Of a DNA stretch of 64,000 nt, positions 3,920 through 62,399 are shown one piece after another. The notes below the pieces were generated by a model that was given only the letters and a program-made list of their open reading frames with translations, did not search any database and had not been told where the DNA came from. The stretch lies in the NCBI GenBank assembly GCA_964016885.1, contig OZ024741.1, forward strand, positions 204,538,001 to 204,602,000. Reading direction: 5' to 3'. The translations under genes and the position numbers were made by a program. Position 1 is the first letter of the stretch. Each line of letters opens with the position of its first letter. The stretch comes from Eledone cirrhosa. Taxonomy: Eukaryota.

Positions 3920-6900
3920 GTTAGTGAATTTTCCCATTATCAATCTTTATTGTAAGTATGCAACAGATAATTTCTTAAATACAGAGGAAGAATTAGAATT
4001 GTATAAAATCTTTCCTTACAAAACAATATTCTAATGTTTGTAACACCATTAAAATCTTATAACACATGTGCAGGTAATTTCTTTTCCTTTTTCAATATAG
4101 TTGTTGTTAATTTCTTTCATTGTTTGAATTACTTTTTTGCAGAACTGTTTCATGACTATACACTAAAAATATTTTCCTTTTATATTGTTTTAAGCATTTT
4201 ACTTTGCCTCCTACCTGGTTATAACCTTGATGATGAACCCAAACTTAGTTCCAGGGGCTTATTTAAAATTAAATGAAGGATGAGTTTAATATAAGTTAAA
4301 ATGCCAAGAAATTTTCTAATTATTATTTTTTTTTTTTTAGACTTTTTTAATATGATTTTCAGTGATATGTTATAATCTTTGCATTGTTCTGTAGCATATA
4401 TTACTAACTTGAACTCTAGGTTAGGTTATTTTCAAAATCATGAGCTTGAAACAATTAACCCTTCAGGCAATATCTTGACTAAACATTAGGCTAGCTGTAC
4501 CATGTTCCAAACAACATTTGTTTTACTCTTGAGAAAGCATTATCTATCTTATTAAGTACCAGTAATTTACTGGGTAATTGCTGACCTTGTGCCAAATGTA
4601 GAAACAATTATTTATCTTATTACACTTGCCTAAAGTATAAGTATTTAATTGATCGAATTAGTAAAGATATAAAATTGCTCTAAATATATTTATATATCTG
4701 TTTTTCAATCATAATTCTACTCATTTTAACGTGTATAAATGGATGTAAAAGAAATCAAAATTTATTATTTTTGTTGTTTTTGATCCATTTCAACATAATG
4801 ATTGTGCCTTTTGAAAAAGGTACTTTTCTGTACTAGAACAATAAAATGCATTGCTTGTAATAATGTTAGATTGTAGTACACTCTAAGAATGTCAACTATG
4901 GTGCTGTACTCTGGTTTTGCATTATAGAGGTTGTTTTTCTCAAGAATCAAGTGACACACTAAGGTTATTAAGTGTGTAAGGATTAGTGTGGCTTTATTGG
5001 TAAAGGAACATTAAGCTAGTTGTTAATGGTTTTCTTTGAATTTCCAGAAAGCTTGCTGCCAGAAAGAGAAACCGTTTTAGTGAATGAGTGAGTTCTGGGG
5101 TGATTAACATTTCAGAAAAAAGGGGGGTTTTTTTTCATTTCAAATGAAACATCTTTCCATAAGTAATTTCAACAAAAATGTAGATGATATAAACTACTAA
5201 TTTACTCAAACTACCAAATTGTTTTTGCTTCATGTTCATTCTTCCATTGTTATTAGAAAAGTTTCACAATTGTTTTCTATAAGAAAGCATCTTTCATGTT
5301 CAAAGTATTTCTGCTTGCATCATCAAATGTTGCTTTCACTCATCTTCTCATTTTCGCTTTTCTTTGTATGTGGCTACAAAATTAAACTATTTTCACATCC
5401 CATCTTTTGAGCATTTTTTCCTATTTAAAGGTTTCATAAACTTCACCTCTGAATTCTAACTCCCATGTTGCAGCATAGAAAAATGGGGAAAAAAATCAAA
5501 TTTTATGTAGCAAAACAACCCTAGAAATATTAATTCCACAGAATAAAATAATTCTGTTGAGAATCATTAATCAAAAACTTTTTGGAAAATTTTCTTTTGT
5601 CATTACTTCTGCATTTCTGATACTTTGGTAATTGAAGTGTAAAATTATGTGATGGTTTAACAATTGTGTTACCTATCAATGTTTAAGTAATATTTATTAC
5701 TTACAAATTCATATAAATACAATCCCACACTTGGGATTTTTTGCCTTTTGGATATTATTTGAAATCATCCAAAATGTTTGCTTGAATTCAAAATAAAATA
5801 CAGAATTATGTGCAACAATATGTGTATTTCAATTTAAACTACACATATTACTGTAGATATTTCAGCATGATGTGATTAAGAAAGTATGCTGAAACTCCTG
5901 TGAGCTATATATTGGTTTTTAAGTTTATCATATGCCTAATGATGGTTATGTGTCTGATATTGAGCTTTGGAGATTTACTAATGATAATATCAATGTGATT
6001 AGATGAAGCAAATATCAATCTTTGTTTGTCATTACTTTAACATCTTCATTGTTTATCATGTATTATTTTCATTTCATAACTCAGAATCAAATTATCATAT
6101 ATCTGATGATCTTTCAAGTCATTATAGAAAGTAATGTTTTAACATGGATTTCATCACAACTGCTTACAGATTTTTTTTGTATTAATGAGGGAAGACAATA
6201 TAATGGGAAAAAATAAAAGCTTAACAACGAATAAGCTATTTTTTTTTCTCACAATGAATGATGAAAATACTTTGTTGTTAGCCATATAAAATTTATTTTG
6301 CTATTTGATTTGCTTCTCAATTGTTACTTCTCTTAATGTTTTGAATTAATATTTTATTAAATATTTTCTTTTCATTTTTAAAACCTGGATATCTATTATG
6401 TTTATTGTGTTAGATTTTCTTCTGTTAGATTGTACATCCCAAGTGATTTAGGATTTCAGTTCTTCAGTTTAAAATTTGTATAGATTCCTCCTTTTCTTCC
6501 CTACAGATTCTATTTCTGTTATTTCTAACCCTTTTCTGTAGATTTAGTGTACAGTTTACAAGAAAAAAAAAAGGTTTCTTAAACTTTTCATCCAAAATGT
6601 TTCCCAATTTTGATATATCATTTCATCCTCCTTCTGATCACCTGACACCCCTTTTTTTGTCACAAGACTTAGTTTCTGTTTGATGTCAGTTGAGAACCCC
6701 TTTTATTTACCTTTTATTTTTCATCTATTCAAATTAGTTCTTTAAAACAAAATTCTAAAAGAAATTTCTCTTAAAATTTCCTGTATTTTAGTGCCCCATT
6801 GACCCTTCATTTTTCGTAGAAAAGGTAAGCACGTCAGATCTCTTAGAACATTATTTTTTTTTCAACTTAAATTCGTAGATAGCTTGTTTCTATTTGTGGT

Positions 6901-7637
6901 AGTGGTTTCACTCGTGCCTTTTTTTTTTTTTTTTTTAGACAGTTTAGTTGTCGTGTGTGTCTGTCTTCATAATATATTGTTGTCTCATTATTCAAATGTA
7001 ATAGCAATTTCTTTCAGAATACAAGTAAAGAATATTGACTATTTTGGCTGAAAAGTGGTAAAGTGCTGCTTTGTTGTGTGGTAGGGTGGTTTCCTTTTTT
7101 ATTTTTGTAGTCTAAAAACTTAAACTCTGCTATAGGTATTAGAGGATTATGTTCCTTTTTATAGTTGTTAGTATTGGAAAAGTCATCCTGCCATATGACT
7201 TGATCCAACAATTAATACAAATATTTGAATTTGTTCACTTGCTCAAACAATCAAGAAACACAAATAAAAAAAATATGTTGAAACTATACCAATTGGAATT
7301 TGGGGTGGAAAGAATAGAAAAATCATTTTACTAATAATTAGAAAATATATTAGTAAATATTTATTCAGGTATTTTTATCTATTTATTTATTAAATGCAAT
7401 TAGAGGCAATAAACTCATAAGATATTGGGTTTTAAAAATAAAAATGCAATAAAATAATATGTGGGGTGACAGTGGATCATACTAGGGCAGAGAAAGAGGG
7501 AGGGAAAGAGAGAGAAATCAGCAATACATGATCTGACGCGAAACAAAGGTGATCAACACTATTGAGACTGTTAATTATTGTTCTATTTTCAAGCCAAATC
7601 TATCTTCAACTATTGTTTATCAATAACTGTATATACT

Positions 7638-7911
7638 TAACAATTACTCTGTGGAAGAGTCATTTTAATAACTTAAAAACAAAAACTCTTAACTTTATAT
7701 ATTTATCATTTATTTTTTATGTCAAAATTTCCATCATACTGTCGGTGACCTAGTCACTCACAAAGTTACTGTGTTGCAGTGGAACTGTGTCCAGTAGCCA
7801 GGTCATGTCATTTCAATAAAAAATTTGACATAAAAAAATAAATGATAAATATATTAAGTTTTTGTGTGTTTTTAAATGACTAAAATGACACTGCCACACA
7901 GTAATTGTTTA
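7638..7911. mobile_element. Fold-back element/MITE with about 90-bp imperfect TIRs
   Basis: 7640-7730 is the imperfect reverse complement of 7820-7908. Confidence 0.7.
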
Positions 7912-8654
7912 ATTTCAACACACAGTCGCAGATTAAGTCACTTGCCAGATTACTCCAACATATATATATATATTTACACTTAGAAAATTGAATTTGGATA
8001 TAGATACACAAGTTCCATGAAATAAAATTCACATGACACACACACGCATGAAAAATCAAGTACTTGTTGTCTCTCTGTTGTGTCCCTAGGTATCTGTATC
8101 TACATTTAGATTATATGTGCAGGAGTTCTTACAAAAATTTTAGTTTAATTTTAATATATATATGTTTTAATAATAATAAAATGTAATAAAATGTATCATT
8201 GGTTTTTATCTCATAGTTCTCTATTCTTTAACAAATTAGATGAGTCTGAAGTTTTCTCTTTCTCTGTATTCTTTAATCTGTTGTCTGCAAAGTTGTAAAC
8301 AGTGATGACCTATACACTAAAATCCTTTTTATTTTGTGTCTTCTATAACAAGGTCATGAGAATATTTTCTTTATCATCATCTGTTTCTCTTTACTTAATT
8401 CTTCTCTTTAATAAGTCGTAGTTGTGAATCATCTGATAACATTTTTACTTCTTCATTCATTTACTTCATAAACTGACCTGAGACAATTTTTGTTTGGAAT
8501 TTTTCTTCTTTTTTTTTTATTTTAAAACTATTTAACCAAACCATCTTGAAAATGTTACTGTTTTATCATCTTTTCCTTCATGCTCACTGCACCATATTTC
8601 TGTATTTGCAACCAACTTAAGGATCCTCTAATGTGCTGTTATCATCTTAGCATG

Positions 8655-42100: not shown

Positions 42101-42360
42101 ACTTATCTACTGGACCTACAAAAACTCAGTTCCGAATATATGGAGCATTATAAATATTTTATATAAAATGAAAGTGCATCGTATCTACATACATGAGTAT
42201 ATATATGGCATTTACATTGTGGTTGTTGTATTGTCTTTTTTCTCATTACCTGGTAAACCTTTTTATAGAGTGATTAAAATCTAATTAAATAATTTATTAT
42301 AACAGGTTGTAAATATTTGGCTGGTAATTTTTAACCATTTTCTTTGACTTTTATTATCAG

Positions 42361-42559
42361 GGTCAATACCTCTATGAAGCAATTAACAATATTTGGTTCA
42401 CCACAAAATAAACTTGTCCCAAAAATGATGAACTCAAAGATGAGTGATGTTGAGTCATCTGCTCTCTTATCTGTCAAATTTGAAACCAATCCTCTTGATG
42501 GTAACTGTGATACTAGAGTTATTGTGAATTCTGAACCACTGCAGATAATCTATGATGCT
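42361..42559 (+). CDS. VPS13: VPS13 exon w13
   Basis: tatcag|G...GCT|gtaagt; ...LLSVKFETNPLDGNCDTRVIVNSEPLQIIYDA (FETNP motif). Confidence 0.96.
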
Positions 42560-42692
42560 GTAAGTTATTTTTTTAAATATTATTTACTATCAAGTATTTA
42601 ATTAATTATATGCACATTTTTGCCTAACTCTTTCTGTCTTTTTCAGTTTGACATTGAACTTGTCTATATATTTTTTTAACGTTAATTTAAAC

Positions 42693-49516: not shown

Positions 49517-50730
49517 CATCATCATCATCCTTTTAACATACATTTTTCCTTATAGCAGGACCAAATCAGTAATGAAACAAAGCTACTGATCTCCCAGGCA
49601 TGCCAGGGATCTGTGTCTCACCTTTGACACAACTGAGGGTTCTCCCAACCCTTGGCAACATTTCTACAGCTGGGTGCATTTATCATTGTAAATTACCATG
49701 ACCTTGGCATGACTGAAGGGTCCACTCGGCCCTTTCTTTGGCAAGCTCTCCATGGCTGAATGTTATTCCTATCACCAACTATCAGCACTTCACGGGATCA
49801 GGGCAGCAGCTGCAAGAAATATGGGGGGGCTATTGAAGTAGTGATGTTGTGAATAGCTGTTAGAGAGTGTTAGTCATGGGGGGGGGGGGGGGGTAGGTCA
49901 GGTCAGATCATATTGTATGCTGCAGGTTGGGTCTTCTTCGGTACTGAATAGCACCAGCCCTTGTGATCTTTCATCATTCATGTTGCCAGGTTTAGCTTTT
50001 GTAGGTCAGCCTTCACAAGTTCATCCAATCTGCCTCTTCCGCAGGTCCCAACCACTGGGTTTTCTCTGCATTTCTTTATGAAGCTGCTATCTTTCATGCA
50101 CACCACATGTCCATACCAATGCAATCTTCTCTCTTGTACACTACATCCAATTCCTCATCTGTCAAGTTTTTTCTCTGTTTGCTATGTCACTCATGCACAC
50201 TAACATTACACATCCATCAAAATATACTTGACTCATTTCTTTCTAGTCTCCGCAGGTCTTCTGCAGTCAAGGCCTATGTTTCACTGCCATGTAGCATTGC
50301 AGTTCACATAAACATCATACAATCTACCCTTCACTCTGAGAAAAAAGTATTTTGTTGTAGTAAAAGTTGTCAACAACTTTTAGAGAGCTCCCCTGTGCAT
50401 CTGCTGCATATAAAGTCTATCTTTTCCGATAGCCTACCTGCAATCCCACTACATCTCTTGTGTGTCCATAATTTACATTGTGTGCACCTTGTGGAATTTC
50501 TGCCTCCCTTCCCCCATTCTGACATATTGAACAAAGTCACTTTCAGCAAGGAACATTCCTACTCTGCCCACCATGTTTTTGCCACCCATCCAGAAGAATT
50601 TGTCCCGGTGCTCCTTGTCTGTGATGAATCTTACTGCCTCACTTCTTGCACACAGCTACTCTTCCCCTCTCTAACATCTCCACAGTCTCACTGCACTTAC
50701 CTCTCATTGTTCTGATATTTAGTGTGACAA
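49517..50730 (-). mobile_element. RTE LINE, decayed with large internal deletions
   Basis: (ATC)n tail; WYGH, PHD-like and endonuclease-start (LRFVTLNIRTMRGKCSETVEML) remnants. Confidence 0.75.
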
Positions 50731-51178
50731 ATCTGAGATCCCATGTTTGATGGGAAAGGGGCTGCAAGGCTGTCTTTCTCTTTTCCTGGATTTTAGGGGT
50801 AGGAGGGGTACCCAAATGTTTGGGGATTTTCATGCATGTCAGGTTCTTTTGTTTTGTATTGTTTTGTTTGTCACACAAATGTATGTGGTCATCCCCTGTA
50901 CCAGCATCAGCAGTAGCCACAACCCTTCACTAAATCTTTTGAACCCTAAATGATGTTTCCAATGGAAGCTAATTTCTTTCCATGATAATGTTTAAAGCTC
51001 TCTAAAAATAAGTTTGAAAATTTGAGATTTATTTTCTTATATTATAAAAAGCTGCCACAATTCACATAATGACTATAAGATGGTTGAATAAGTTAGGTAA
51101 ATTCCCATTGGAGATTGAAAAAAGGTGGACACTAAGTTTAATAAACTGTTATTTCTTTTTTGTTTAATATATTATAAG

Positions 51179-54722: not shown

Positions 54723-55846
54723 GTGAGTACACTAACTTTTTTCTATTTAAATTAGAAATGTAATTTGTTATATCTGAATAGAAAATCATGCAAAATTCCA
54801 GAGCTTTCTCCTATAATTTCTTTTCTCTATCCATTTTGAAAAACTGGATATATATTCATGGAATTAGTGCTATGGTCACATATTATTCTTCATACTAATT
54901 ATTTTTTATGTTGGTCAGCTAGTGAAAGTTGTGCTGCTTTTAAACGAGTAAAATATTTAACATAATTCTTTAACTTGTAAGGTAAAAATCTAAATTGATA
55001 TACCCACCCTGAAGAGCATAAGTGTATTAACAGTTGTGCATATGAATATATTTTAAATGATTTCTTCTATTAGCTTAGATCGTCAGATTTATAATCTAAT
55101 TACTAGTTCTTATTTTATACACTCTGGTAGGATTTATATTTAGGACATAGAAGGATAGAACTAAATATAAAAGCCCATTTAATCTGTTTTAAGAGCTTAG
55201 TCAGAGGAGAAGTAGTGTCCAAATGGTTTCAATAGAGTGGACTCTGATAAAGACCCCAAGACTTAGCTGGTGTTGTTAAACTGGGTAATGGATTAATCTG
55301 CCACCTAAAAGCAATTTAGTGTGTTTGTATACAGTTTCTGTCTACTAAATCGCACTCAAGACTTTTTTTAACATGGGGTTATGGTAGAAATCACTTGAAG
55401 AAGGTACAGTTTAAAAACCTTGAAGTTACAAAGCAAACTTCTTACCCACATAGCTGTATCTGTACCCATATTAGTATCTGTTGAGATCATACATTGGTTA
55501 TCATATTAGATGTATATTTAGTTATTCCTAGGGTTTTAATCTAAATTAAATTGAACATAATAAGTTCAAATTTCAAGAAGTAAAAAAATGGGCAGTGACA
55601 GGACTTGAACCCTTGGCATTAGTATTACCAATTGCACGAGAGTCAACTGTCATTTTTCTCTCTTTCTTCCCAGCCACTACAAATCTATTGTTTCTGTTAT
55701 TTTAACTGTGATATTCTGTTTGCATAAGATAATATAGTTGTAACAAAATAGCCTAGTTAACTAATGCCTAGCATATCAAGCTGTCCTGCTGTGCTTGCAA
55801 TGAGAAATAACACCACAAATCATGTTACTGATATCATTTATCATAG

Positions 55847-57037
55847 CAGGGACTAGAAAGAAAGGGTCTCAAAGTCAACCTGACAAAGACTAAGGTCCTT
55901 GTAAGTAGACTAGAAAACAGAACCCAGATCCCCTCAGGGAAATGGCCTTGCTCAGTATGTAGGAAAGGTGTAGGTAGGAACTCCATTCTCTGCCCCAAAT
56001 GCAAACAATGGGTACACAAGAAATGTAGCGGGATCTCAGGAAGCTTAATTAAGAATGTAGGTTTCACATGTAGCAGCTGTGCTGGGACAGCAAACAGCCA
56101 CAGGAAACAAGTACCACCAATCTCTGGGAGGGCTCTGTAGAAACAGTAGACAGCTTCTGCTACCTAGGTGACCGAATTAGCAGCAGAGGTGGGTGTTCAG
56201 AAAGTACAATAACTAGGGTAAGAACGGGATGGAAGAAGTTCAGGGAACTACTACCACTGCTAGCTGCAAAAGGCTTTTCCCTCAAAATGAAAGGCAGACT
56301 GTATGATGCGTGTATACGAACAGCAATGTTACATGGTAGTGAGACCTGGGCGCTGAAGGTGGAAGACTTACGTAGATTAGAAACAAACGAAGCCTGCATG
56401 CTCCGATGGATGTGTAATAGTAATATACGCGAACGGCAAAGCATAAACGAATTGAGAGAGAGACTGAGCATAAGAGGAATCAAATGCTGTGTGCAGGAGA
56501 GGCGGTTGCGTTGGTATGGACATGTGATGTGTATGAAGGATGACAGCTACATAAAAAGGCGCAGAGCTCTAGAAGTCAATGGAAACCACTGAGTGGGGAG
56601 ACCCTAGAAGACCTGGGATGAGATGATAAAAGCCGACCTTACCCAATTACAACTCTCAAAGGCGATGACACACGACCGTGACCTCTGGCGTCACGCAGTA
56701 GTAATACAGAGTACCCAACCTCCCATCGGTACAAGCTGAAGCATATAGACAGTATGCCCCCACCCCCTCCCACTGCAAAGTGGTCGTGGAGGTGCCACGG
56801 CAAAAAAGCACCCAGCCCACACTGTAAAGTGGATGTGTAGGCGCCACGGAAAAAAAGCACCCAGCACTCACTGTAAATGAGGTTGGTGTTAAGAAGGGCA
56901 TCTAGCTGTAGAAATCAAGCCCAAATCAGTTCCTGTATGAGCAAGGCATGGTCAGCCGACCAGACACTGCCCACAACAGGACAACCCGTCTAACCCATGC
57001 TAGCATGGAAGAACGGACGTAAAACGGTGATGATGAT
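55847..57037 (+). mobile_element. RTE LINE, 5'-truncated
   Basis: GLERKGLKVNLTKTK, PHD-like finger, MKGRLYDACIRTAMLHGSETW; 3' UTR modules; (GAT)n tail. Confidence 0.94.
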
Positions 57038-58297: not shown

Positions 58298-58580
58298 GCT
58301 CATCTTAATGCTCCTGACTTCAAAACGATCTACCATAACACTGAACAATCAATATCAGTCTCTTTCTCGATGCTAGAATTACTGCTTGACCAGACTGCAA
58401 TCATTGACCTTTTACAATTTGCTCAAAAAGTATCACCCCCTGCATCTACTGCAAATGTATTACCACCTATTACAGAAAAAAGTGTTCCAGCTTTAAAAAC
58501 TAATATTAATCAAACTGACAAAAAAACAAAACTAGAAAACAAAGAAAATAAAAAAGAACCTGAAAAGAAGCCTATCAAGA
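58298..58580 (+). CDS. VPS13: VPS13 exon w24
   Basis: ttacag|GCT...AAGA|gtaaga; AHLNAPDFKTIYHNTEQSISVSFSMLELLLDQTAIIDLLQF...PIK. Confidence 0.93.
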
Positions 58581-59696: not shown

Positions 59697-60074
59697 TAGT
59701 CATTTTCAGCATTTAAAACTGTATATTTTAATTGATTTGATCTCTGATTGTAACCAGCTGTCTTATTTCTGGATATATTTATCTTAGCAGACTGGATTCG
59801 GATTAAGAAGCTTTATGTCTAAACTAATGATAATAATTGTTTCTACTTTTGGTACAAGGCCAACAATTACCCCAGTGCAACATAAAGTACCAATAATTCA
59901 CTGGGGTAATTGCTGGCCTTGTGCCTAAATTAGAAACCCTTATTACCATTAGTTTAGACATAAAGCTTCTTAATCCGAATCCAGTCTGCTAAGATAAACA
60001 TATCCAGAAGTAAGACAGCTGGTTACAATCAGAGATCAATTAAAATGTACAGTTTTAAATGTTGGAAATGACTA
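59697..60074. repeat. Long inverted repeat (arms about 180 bp, 21-nt loop)
   Basis: 59697-59877 is the near-perfect reverse complement of 59899-60074. Confidence 0.92.
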
Positions 60075-60337: not shown

Positions 60338-60373
<36 letters not shown>

Positions 60374-60682
60374 TGGCTGCCAACTCGTTTTCGAGTATGG
60401 CCACTACTTTATATCCATGTAGGAGAACTCCTACCGATGCGCTGAACGAGTGTGACTTTTTAGTCCAGGCAGCGACTTGAAAACTCTGGTACAAACACTA
60501 CACTTGTGACAATTATTGACACACAGTGCTGGGCCCATGGTACCATGTGACAACAAGTGCAGAGAGATCTCCAGATATAAAGCAATGCCTGTGCCGTGAA
60601 GCTTTTATAGTGAGCAAAGGCACTGCACAAAGCCAGTCCCACTCTCTTAACCAAGATGATATTTACCAAAAAGAAGAACATG

Positions 60683-60724
<42 letters not shown>

Positions 60725-60728
<4 letters not shown>

Positions 60729-61082
60729 AAAGTTATATTTAAAATTGTTGGGTTACAACTAGTAAATATTTATAACTGATATAAAAGCACTCGACAAATA
60801 TTTGGAGTATATTTACAATATTAAATAAATGGAAACTATATTTATAAAACCATATTTATTTCATTATATATATTTCAGGGATATCATATTAAAAATATGG
60901 TATGCCCTCTTCAGACAATTTGACTTGGTGTCCTTGAAGTGTGTATAATGAGGTAGGTATGGTTTTATAAATGTGGTTTCCATTTGTTAATATCATATGT
61001 TTACTCCAAATAATTGTTGAGTGCTTTATACCAGTTGTAAGAGTCTTTGCTTGTTGTGTCCCAACAATTTAAATAGAACTTT

Positions 61083-61127
<45 letters not shown>

Positions 61128-61468
61128 GCAAAGGTTTTATTTAAAATTGTTGGGTTACGAGTAGATATTTTGTAACTGATATGGGAGCACTCAACAGGTT
61201 TTGGAGTATTTTACGATATTAAACGGGTGGAAGCTACATTTGTGGAACCATATTTGTTTCATTGTGTGTATTTCGGGGATATCATATTAAAAAATAACTT
61301 TTTAAATGGAAGTTGTAAAATTTTTTAAGGTATGTCAAATTTATTTATAAAACTGTTTATATATTGTCTGAAGAGGGCATACCATATTTTTAATATGATA
61401 TCCCTGAAATATATATAATGAAATAAATATGGTTTTATAAATATAGTTTCCATTTATTTAATATTGTA
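60725..61468. mobile_element. Four-copy inverted repeat complex in (TA)n tracts, probable Penelope-like terminal repeats
   Basis: A 60725-60919, B 60926-61085 (inverted), (TA)n, C 61127-61295, D 61363-61468 (inverted); CTGAAGA-stem-GAAA motif in D. Confidence 0.7.
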
Positions 61469-61533
61469 TATATATATATATATACATACTATATATATAT
61501 ATATATACATTTTTTATCTCTCCCACCTTGCAG

Positions 61534-61650
61534 AAAAGGGAAAAGCAAGAGATCCAGAAATTATCGACATCAAAGTTATAGCTCGACTTGATACAATATC
61601 TATTGGCATTTCCTCACCGACTCAACTCATTACTAAGATCAAGGTGAAAG
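61534..61650 (+). CDS. VPS13: VPS13 exon w25 (gene continues beyond the window)
   Basis: ttgcag|AA...AAAG|gtatgt; KGKARDPEIIDIKVIARLDTISIGISSPTQLITKIKVK(G). Confidence 0.9.
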
Positions 61651-62399
61651 GTATGTAACTTTATTTTATTTAACATGTTTCTTCAATTAAATTATAATCT
61701 TCCAACATAATTTCCTATAAAAACTATATGCTATGTTACAAATGCCATTTTAATAATGAAATCATTTTTGTAAATACCTCCAAATTCTTCTTTCATCAAC
61801 TCAAATACAGTGTATTTTATTAGAACTATAGTAATGAAGGGGTTAGCTTTCTCTTAGTGTCTCACTTGTATTTTATTGCTCATAATTTTCACTTCACTTC
61901 ACTTTTGAAACTCATCCTTGATGGTAGTGTCTCTGTTGGTTGTCTGTCTTAAGAAGGGAAACATGAGCGATATATCAATTATATGAATATTATATTTTGT
62001 TTTAATTAGTTTACTTGAAAGAAGTATTGATCTTAGTGTCTTCAGCACTTGGGAATTGGGATAACTAGATGATGATGTGGTTGGGATCAGTTTGAGTTCT
62101 TGAAGCCAATTAGTCATTAGAAAGAAATTATTGTTCTGAGAGATGAAAAATTAACCTTTTCATTACCATATTTCCAATAAAAAACAGTGCCTATGATTTT
62201 CAAATAATTTTTTAAATAATCAAGAATTTGAAGGGATATAACCCACTTTTTCATTATTAATCTGGAGTTTGGAGTAGAACTTCACAAAATTTTCACAAAA
62301 CTTGCAAAAAGGAGTAACATTCTGATTGATGTGTAATTAGCTTGACTTATATATATTGTTAGACTTATAAACAATATATAATTCATATGTAAATCACAT

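Follow-up and report, generated by a model that had tools for sequence, protein, structure and literature searches.

The window analysed here is a stretch of 64,000 nucleotides from the genome of Eledone cirrhosa, and the structure under study lies in it within a plus-strand intron of a VPS13-like gene. The intron is flanked upstream by a predicted exon at 58298..58580 (+), recognized by its AG/GT borders and open frame, and downstream by an exon at 61534..61654 (+), which recurs without mismatch as a block of 121 nt within a contig of 7,318 nt from the RNA-like run X2. An exon on the same strand at 42335-42598 matched the Pfam family VPS13_N with an E-value of 4e-8, below the curated cutoff. 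Introns of the gene also hold, at 55834-56592 and 49967-50926, ORF fragments that we take by resemblance to be those of an RTE-like LINE. An inverted repeat of a different family (146 nt, 92% complementary, 21-nt spacer) is found at 59732-60044, and another young repeat occupies 60372-60684, between TA runs and next to the host structure (40 scored copies, 98-100% identity). The latter segment was tried as a left-flank probe for haplotigs and set aside as uninformative, being itself a young repeat.

Along the window the parts of the structure follow each other in the order (TA)n, A, B, (TA)n, C, x, D, (TA)n. The outer parts are a host insertion, an inverted pair of ends of a Penelope-like element (PLE), and the inner parts form an insert (60917-61367, 450 bases) nested centrally in that pair. 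The host lies in a target run of (TA)n (60685..60726 on its left, an interrupted run at 61475..61508 on its right), identified from the sequence and from the residence of family copies in (TA)n. Arm A (60727..60919, minus strand) is an antisense PLE end, or pLTR, including a tail of about 80 nt (60727-60807); it is 98% identical to an arm in the related locus L202 and 95% identical to both pLTRs flanking the ORF of L202. Arm D (61363..61474, +) is a sense PLE end without the tail, contains a hammerhead-like CTGANGA..GAAA motif and is a 99% inverted copy of A, so that A and D make up a 112-nt inverted pair, 99% complementary, with the two members 443 nt apart.

Within the insert, B (60917..61085, +) is a sense PLE end with its tail, from a sister subfamily, and C (61126..61293, +) is an antisense PLE end with tail; between them lies a (TA)n centre (61086..61125), and C is followed by x (61294..61363, +), a segment without a long duplex partner. 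The initial annotation had placed a hairpin at 60926..61295, with B and C folding on each other around the (TA)n centre, and both the position and the fold hold (predicted energy -182.6 kcal/mol, z -22). The left end of the insert coincides with the base of the predicted B/C stem. At the left junction (60917..60919, +) the host arm and the donor described below share a microhomology of 2-3 nt, and at the right junction (61363..61367, +) one of 4-5 nt; the right junction can alternatively be read as a deletion of 7 nt, the crossover then lying at any point up to 61442.

The family to which these arms belong is abundant, an exact 23-nt motif of the arm occurring 29,240 times in the genome. In L202 a pLTR, an ORF of 748 aa, a UTR and a pLTR with tail follow each other. 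By motif reading, this ORF contains YRDD, a cysteine-rich linker and a GIY-YIG-like end, and the succession of a reverse transcriptase (RT) YxDD motif and a GIY-YIG endonuclease (EN) in a single ORF was found both there and in a 789-aa ORF at L154; a CxC..CP..C motif between RT and EN was read by eye in the PLE ORFs. The Atlas neighbours of the ORFs were GIY-YIG/RVT_1 proteins (0.96-0.97), and Pfam and PDB searches with the PLE ORFs gave no relevant match. The pLTRs are arranged directly in L200 and L202, and L190, L191 and numerous short copies have them in inverted orientation. In two subfamilies a predicted hairpin is bordered by CTGANGA and GAAA (z about -1); Rfam returned sub-threshold matches only, mostly to microRNA-type hairpins, with no hammerhead among the matches listed. 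The tail of about 80 nt is present on one end only; of 30 clonal copies, 10 have it on the left and 20 on the right. As judged by these sequence motifs, the family is an EN+ Penelope-like retrotransposon with an RT ORF, and the copies L203-L232 are a non-autonomous hairpin derivative of it that spreads as whole units. A foldback DNA transposon or MITE was considered and dropped, given that the ends are asymmetric, that the arm flanks an RT ORF and that the tail switches side, which among clonal copies is not expected of a cut-and-paste element.

Genome searches with B and with C led to adjacent matches on contig C9, which is a different chromosome from that of the window. The locus found there (L036, G000:C9:35419680-35420104) has the same B-(TA)n-C-x order, is unedited and is unique; the rearrangement junction between C and x (61278..61309, +) matches the genome at two places, namely the window and this C9 donor. 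Compared with the donor, the insert shows 31 A>G changes, all on a single strand (+), among the 126 As of the hairpin arms, together with four other substitutions. In B, 13 of 58 As are changed to G and three other substitutions are present; in C, A>G affects 18 of 68 As, with no other substitution and a 3-nt deletion; in x, counted over 61294-61366, none of 27 As is changed and there is one C>T. The differences other than A>G comprise G>A, T>C, A>C, C>T, the 3-nt deletion and a longer TA run: the centre has about 20 units, versus about 7 in the donor, carries no A>G and likely expanded after editing. Judged by this alignment, the insert is an edited copy of the C9 locus inserted within an unedited host of the same family. 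Two heuristic scans of 160 kb around the C9 locus yielded no convincing donor exons.

These comparisons bear on several claims of the initial annotation. For C against A it had given about 20 A>G changes, and 20 were counted, along with seven other substitutions. Its report of A>G on the plus strand of B is borne out (13 against the donor), but B is not the reverse copy of A for which it had been taken; it belongs to the sister subfamily, and 4 of the 17 A>G differences between B and the reverse of A are subfamily differences. The Gs had been read as derived, which agrees with the other family copies, among which the best 40 of 90 loci per arm differ by 11-18 A>G from B and by 18-20 from C. 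The family state at the edited sites is A, not G, and the spectrum is A>G-enriched in the alignment.

The arms of the host tell when the changes arose. Relative to their nearest relatives, A>G changes number 0/78 in A and 0/39 in D, and from 61443 on D matches A, not the donor, at the diagnostic sites. Because A and D form a 99% duplex of 112 nt in the same intron and carry no A>G, editing preceded insertion; their unedited state also argues that editing took place on donor RNA and not on the pre-mRNA of the host gene. Counting against the editing account, pairing within B and C is equally frequent for edited and unedited As (28/31 and 85/94 paired in the predicted fold), and in x 12 of 27 As pair in short predicted stems.

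Further edited copies were sought genome-wide with three motifs, each requiring two Gs. The motif of the edited C arm has its sole match in the window, and the two motifs of the edited sense arm gave 8 and 41 matches, 44 of them distinct: 7 single hyper-edited loci (the window, L117, L118, L119, L120, L123 and L144), 26 matches in one edited lineage and 11 weak or unrelated ones. Among the latter, L137 was dropped as unrelated sequence, L133-L136 and four matches on contig C27 for having few A>G, and L121/L122 as diverged despite 10 A>G. Mismatches between the two arms of one hairpin (G:T/A:C/other) were 56/0/0 in L117, 47/0/1 in L123, 33/0/1 in L119 and 43/3/9 in L118, compared with 0-2 G:T mismatches in six comparison hairpins. 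L118 at 1420-2150 (G000:C3:172.16 Mb) is a second composite, with an edited arm-(TA)n-arm layout like that of the window insert.

L117 (C2:369.87 Mb) comes with its own controls, as its hairpin centre is common to 30 dispersed copies (L203-L232), all near-identical inverted hairpins. Over 375 nt it has 56 A>G and is otherwise unchanged, and 27 of 29 sisters show 0-1 A>G; the other two, L212 and L232, aligned poorly (22-23 other mismatches) and were scored neither as edited nor as unedited. L117 was picked for its editing, so the unselected rate is 0/29. The related hairpin L123 has 49 A>G, of which 35 are shared with L117 versus 19 expected at random; the two may therefore not be independent, and either site preference or shared descent may account for the overlap. 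Such differences might be put down to ordinary mutation, to divergence between subfamilies or to gene conversion by a G-rich subfamily, since part of the contrast between B and A is indeed subfamily divergence and 29,240 arms will give a few two-G motif matches by chance, as the 11 weak or unrelated matches out of 44 illustrate. This explanation is refuted for the present locus by the ratio of 31 A>G to 4 other substitutions against the donor, by that of 56 to 0 against clonal sisters, and by the single genome-wide occurrence of the edited C-arm motif.

For a pooled spectrum, 14 arms were each compared with the closest fetched copy, picked without A/G bias, which gave 252 A>G, 11 T>C, 8 G>A, 7 C>T and 35 transversions. 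Sorted by 5' neighbour, and with L118_c, the L152 arms, tails and controls left out, the edited As amount to 130/380 (34%) after T, 97/325 (30%) after A, 20/121 (17%) after C and 3/93 (3%) after G. The avoidance of a 5' G that had been attributed to the hairpin is thus present in the pooled arms (3/93, p=4e-10) but not established by the window locus alone, where As after G are edited in 0/10 cases (p=0.066) and those after C, in 2/16, are also disfavoured.

Three unpaired tails contain no edited A (0/34, 0/36 and 0/30). This matters for deamination at the level of DNA, either by ADAR on an RNA:DNA hybrid or by a deaminase acting on an intermediate of fold-back DNA. Same-strand changes on both arms would likewise be expected if a single DNA strand folded back on itself. 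We know of no animal deaminase for DNA:DNA hairpins. ADAR activity on RNA:DNA hybrids has been published (cited in PMC12925331); a hybrid, however, would span the tails and x, and yet the counts there are 0/27, 0/34, 0/36 and 0/30. Family RNA edited in this way is moreover found in the RNA-like run X2, and we regard a DNA-level origin of the changes as highly improbable.

The edited lineage is carried by a second young PLE, that of the 789-aa ORF (L154), in the 3' region of which the edited hairpin sits; the 26 matches noted above belong to it. Across 17 carried units at 14 loci, 11 of the 12 variable columns that at least two loci share are A/G columns located in the paired arms, L152 and its duplicate having been left out of the count for their longer, differently edited hairpin, and the carrier ORF has a symmetric spectrum (A>G 10, T>C 7, G>A 9, C>T 10). 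The alignment suggests that the carried hairpin gains further A>G in later rounds. L152 (G000:C13:18.74 Mb) is a carrier copy with largely different A>G sites in its longer hairpin and may represent an earlier or independent editing event. In L124, L129 and L151 the edited arm stops at its own tail and the downstream flanks are unrelated, which suggests re-mobilisation from the internal edited pLTR.

Some other features were observed at these loci. The sense strand of L154 at 6401-8360 (G000:C2:55.129-55.131 Mb) has microsatellites with counts of TG 277 and CA 27, and of G 353 and C 83; this TG bias in the carrier 3' region may be the outcome expected of repeated editing of a (UA)n hairpin, and other causes are possible. 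An AT-rich, coding-like segment upstream of the edited arm in L153 (1150-1490; G000:C13:18.743 Mb) resembles, by eye, a mitochondrial insertion. L160 holds an F-box-like ORF segment at 5196-5726 on the minus strand (Pfam E-value 1.9e-5), close to an inverted element that is duplicated on C27.

The window allele was also compared with sequencing runs by the share of insert words in each run, with half of the words as the threshold. No examined run reaches half; the best shares, 0.24 and 0.20, both come from sample S1, and the unedited insert words alone would account for 0.25-0.26. Shares of 0.07-0.13 in unrelated runs carry no evidential weight and were discounted. S1 is of the same species, its flank at 61525-61900 being identical, and its contigs have a depth of 0 at 61256-61281. 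The S1 test is a weak one, because contigs drop rare paths within a very deep repeat and because a young insertion may be polymorphic; the zero depth would fit a polymorphic insertion, simplified contigs in the deep repeat or an artefact at this one locus. The RAD run X22 has no coverage of the locus. When reads were aligned to 61126-61900, with 61457-61524 left out as repeat, the edited core reached depths of 870 and 158 in the RNA-like run X2 and of 0-2 in the DNA-like runs X1/X21. The X2 depth fits edited family RNA, and it also keeps alive the view that the window allele is an assembly artefact, produced by RNA reads in polishing or gap filling or by a cDNA chimera.

That view draws on the absence of the edited words from same-species DNA contigs and their presence in the RNA-like run, and on the fact that the plus strand is the sense strand of the host gene. 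Polishing in place, however, should also have altered the A/D duplex, where 0/78 and 0/39 As are changed, and the long TA centre. The left junction overlap of just 2-3 nt is with a locus on another chromosome, and compared with the donor the insert shows four further substitutions, a deletion and a longer run of TA. Edits elsewhere also bear on this view. In the inverted duplicates of L149 they appear as 11 A>G and as 11 T>C, these being the sole changes, the antisense arm of L154 has 14 T>C, and L144 has 14 A>G versus 6 T>C. Polishing with RNA would leave both arms with A>G on the transcribed strand; the T>C mirrors therefore show that the Gs are DNA. Nor can polishing produce edits that dispersed copies share and that are mirrored as T>C. 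We consider it very unlikely that the window allele is an artefact, and should it fall, the shared and mirrored edits at other loci mean that the phenomenon would stand.

Taken together, the observations make it rather likely that a transcript of the C9 hairpin was edited by ADAR and that the PLE enzyme then reverse transcribed it into an inverted insertion from the same family, at the centre of that insertion. The initial annotation had proposed that an edited hairpin RNA was reverse transcribed and inserted into the genome, a proposal that now finds support in the donor, in the limitation of the changes to the duplex, in the pooled 5'-G avoidance, in the RT ORF and in the other edited copies. 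The plus strand of the C9 locus would have been transcribed and folded, and ADAR would have turned about 25% of the arm As into inosine. As the edited RNA corresponds to the top strand, the cDNA would be the bottom strand, which implies priming from the D side. The RT making arm D probably jumped onto the edited RNA at the 4-5 nt microhomology and would then have copied x, C, (TA)n and B in order, after which the cDNA would have joined arm A where the B/C stem has its base, through the 2-3 nt microhomology. Such an event would fall in the germ line or the early embryo, with the expansion of the TA run and a few ordinary mutations coming afterwards. The same route could give the insertions of whole edited hairpins at L117, L119 and L123, as well as the edited hairpin riding in the 3' region of the second PLE, the latter likely with new A>G added later.

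The junctions could also result from two steps, in which a pre-existing A/D palindrome broke centrally and was patched by edited RNA or its cDNA through microhomology, by another RT activity; the enzyme would presumably be a LINE RT or polymerase theta. Consistent with this, the ends of A and D are symmetric, with one additional matching base in common that the family continuation lacks, both junctions show microhomology and no poly(A), and RTE-like RT ORFs are common among the fetched loci. Ordinary family copies, however, often have near-symmetric centres, and the edited hairpins that are complete and have proper PLE ends, like the mirrored arms elsewhere, show that the PLE route does copy edited RNA, so that we judge a two-step patch unlikely. 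Reverse transcription of the edited transcript by the PLE enzyme remains our preferred account. The ADAR-type signature is real and strong and has an identified donor, and the PLE is a plausible writer.

The locus and its relatives record in sequence how RNA editing became DNA in an animal, outside retroviruses; the donor, clonal unedited controls and mirrored copies are found together in one genome. The rate becomes measurable, at about 8 independent events versus 29,240 unedited arms, a lower bound given by two narrow motifs. Where a copy is edited, an RNA intermediate is proven for that copy, and this intermediate bears on the poorly understood mechanism of PLEs, namely on the mobilisation of whole hairpins, on template switching and on tail formation. 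More tentatively, and in our view less likely than not, PLEs might be a standing channel for ADAR edits into heritable DNA, in which edits would build up over successive rounds in a lineage that still moves, would help to change (TA)n into TA/TG microsatellites and, with template switching, would allow edited transcripts from any part of the genome to be captured. If this were true, the channel would add mutational input to the known A-to-G excess at edited sites.

Templated insertions at double-strand breaks and endonuclease-independent retro-insertions likewise combine a distant donor and microhomology junctions with the lack of poly(A); unlike in those, the edits here mark the template as RNA. 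Mutagenesis by a deaminase together with an RT has reportedly been proposed in earlier studies (PMC11817618, PMC12941027 and PMC5704389). The full-text literature searched, a body of text with few subscription journals and no supplements, contained no account of PLE or hairpin insertions edited by ADAR in a germ-line genome. In cephalopod evolution edited adenines are more often replaced by G, which PMC7703385 explains by selection; the accessible text of that study does not mention reverse transcription. RNA write-back offers a mutational alternative to selection for this excess, and no action of it on coding exons was seen here.

The elements resemble Neptune-type EN+ PLEs, as far as these are described in PMC8557442, PMC11167929 and PMC4209133, in the pLTR-ORF-pLTR arrangement, the inverted 5'-truncated pairs, the tail on one end, the (TA)n targets, the order of RT and GIY-YIG-like EN and, putatively, the hammerhead-like motif; the Neptune-type label is putative and based on the cysteine linker motif read by eye. 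They differ from the canonical EN+ PLEs of those accounts in the length of the tail (about 80 nt versus 30-40), in the spread of inverted hairpins as whole units (30 copies with one centre) and in the presence of ADAR-type edits in copies. In the part of a retrozyme preprint that was accessible (10.64898/2026.07.22.740005), ADAR is not mentioned. Hyper-editing has been described for Penelope and palindromic repeat RNAs, PLE RNA of a lizard being a heavy ADAR target with 5'-G depletion (PMC5625713), with edits in RNA reads only in the portion available, whereas here they stand in the DNA sequence; 5'-G depletion is treated as a mark of ADAR there and in PMC2873906.

APOBEC-edited retroelements, as presented in the accessible text of PMC2873906, are alike in that rare hyper-mutated copies occur among unedited sisters and show one substitution type with a neighbour motif; the changes there are G>A on cDNA, whereas those described here are A>G, limited to RNA-duplex parts and with 5'-G avoidance. 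In that survey, DNA clusters of A>G/T>C served as a comparison class. ADAR hypermutation recorded after reverse transcription has been reported for Rous-associated virus as well as for avian leukosis virus (PMC12925331, in the text available), which share with the present case clustered A>G in an inverted-repeat region of an RNA copied by RT. Unlike in these avian retroviruses, the edits here are found in a non-viral retrotransposon family, in a non-coding hairpin passenger and in a chromosome assembly, and they are represented by several independent edited copies and one multi-copy lineage.
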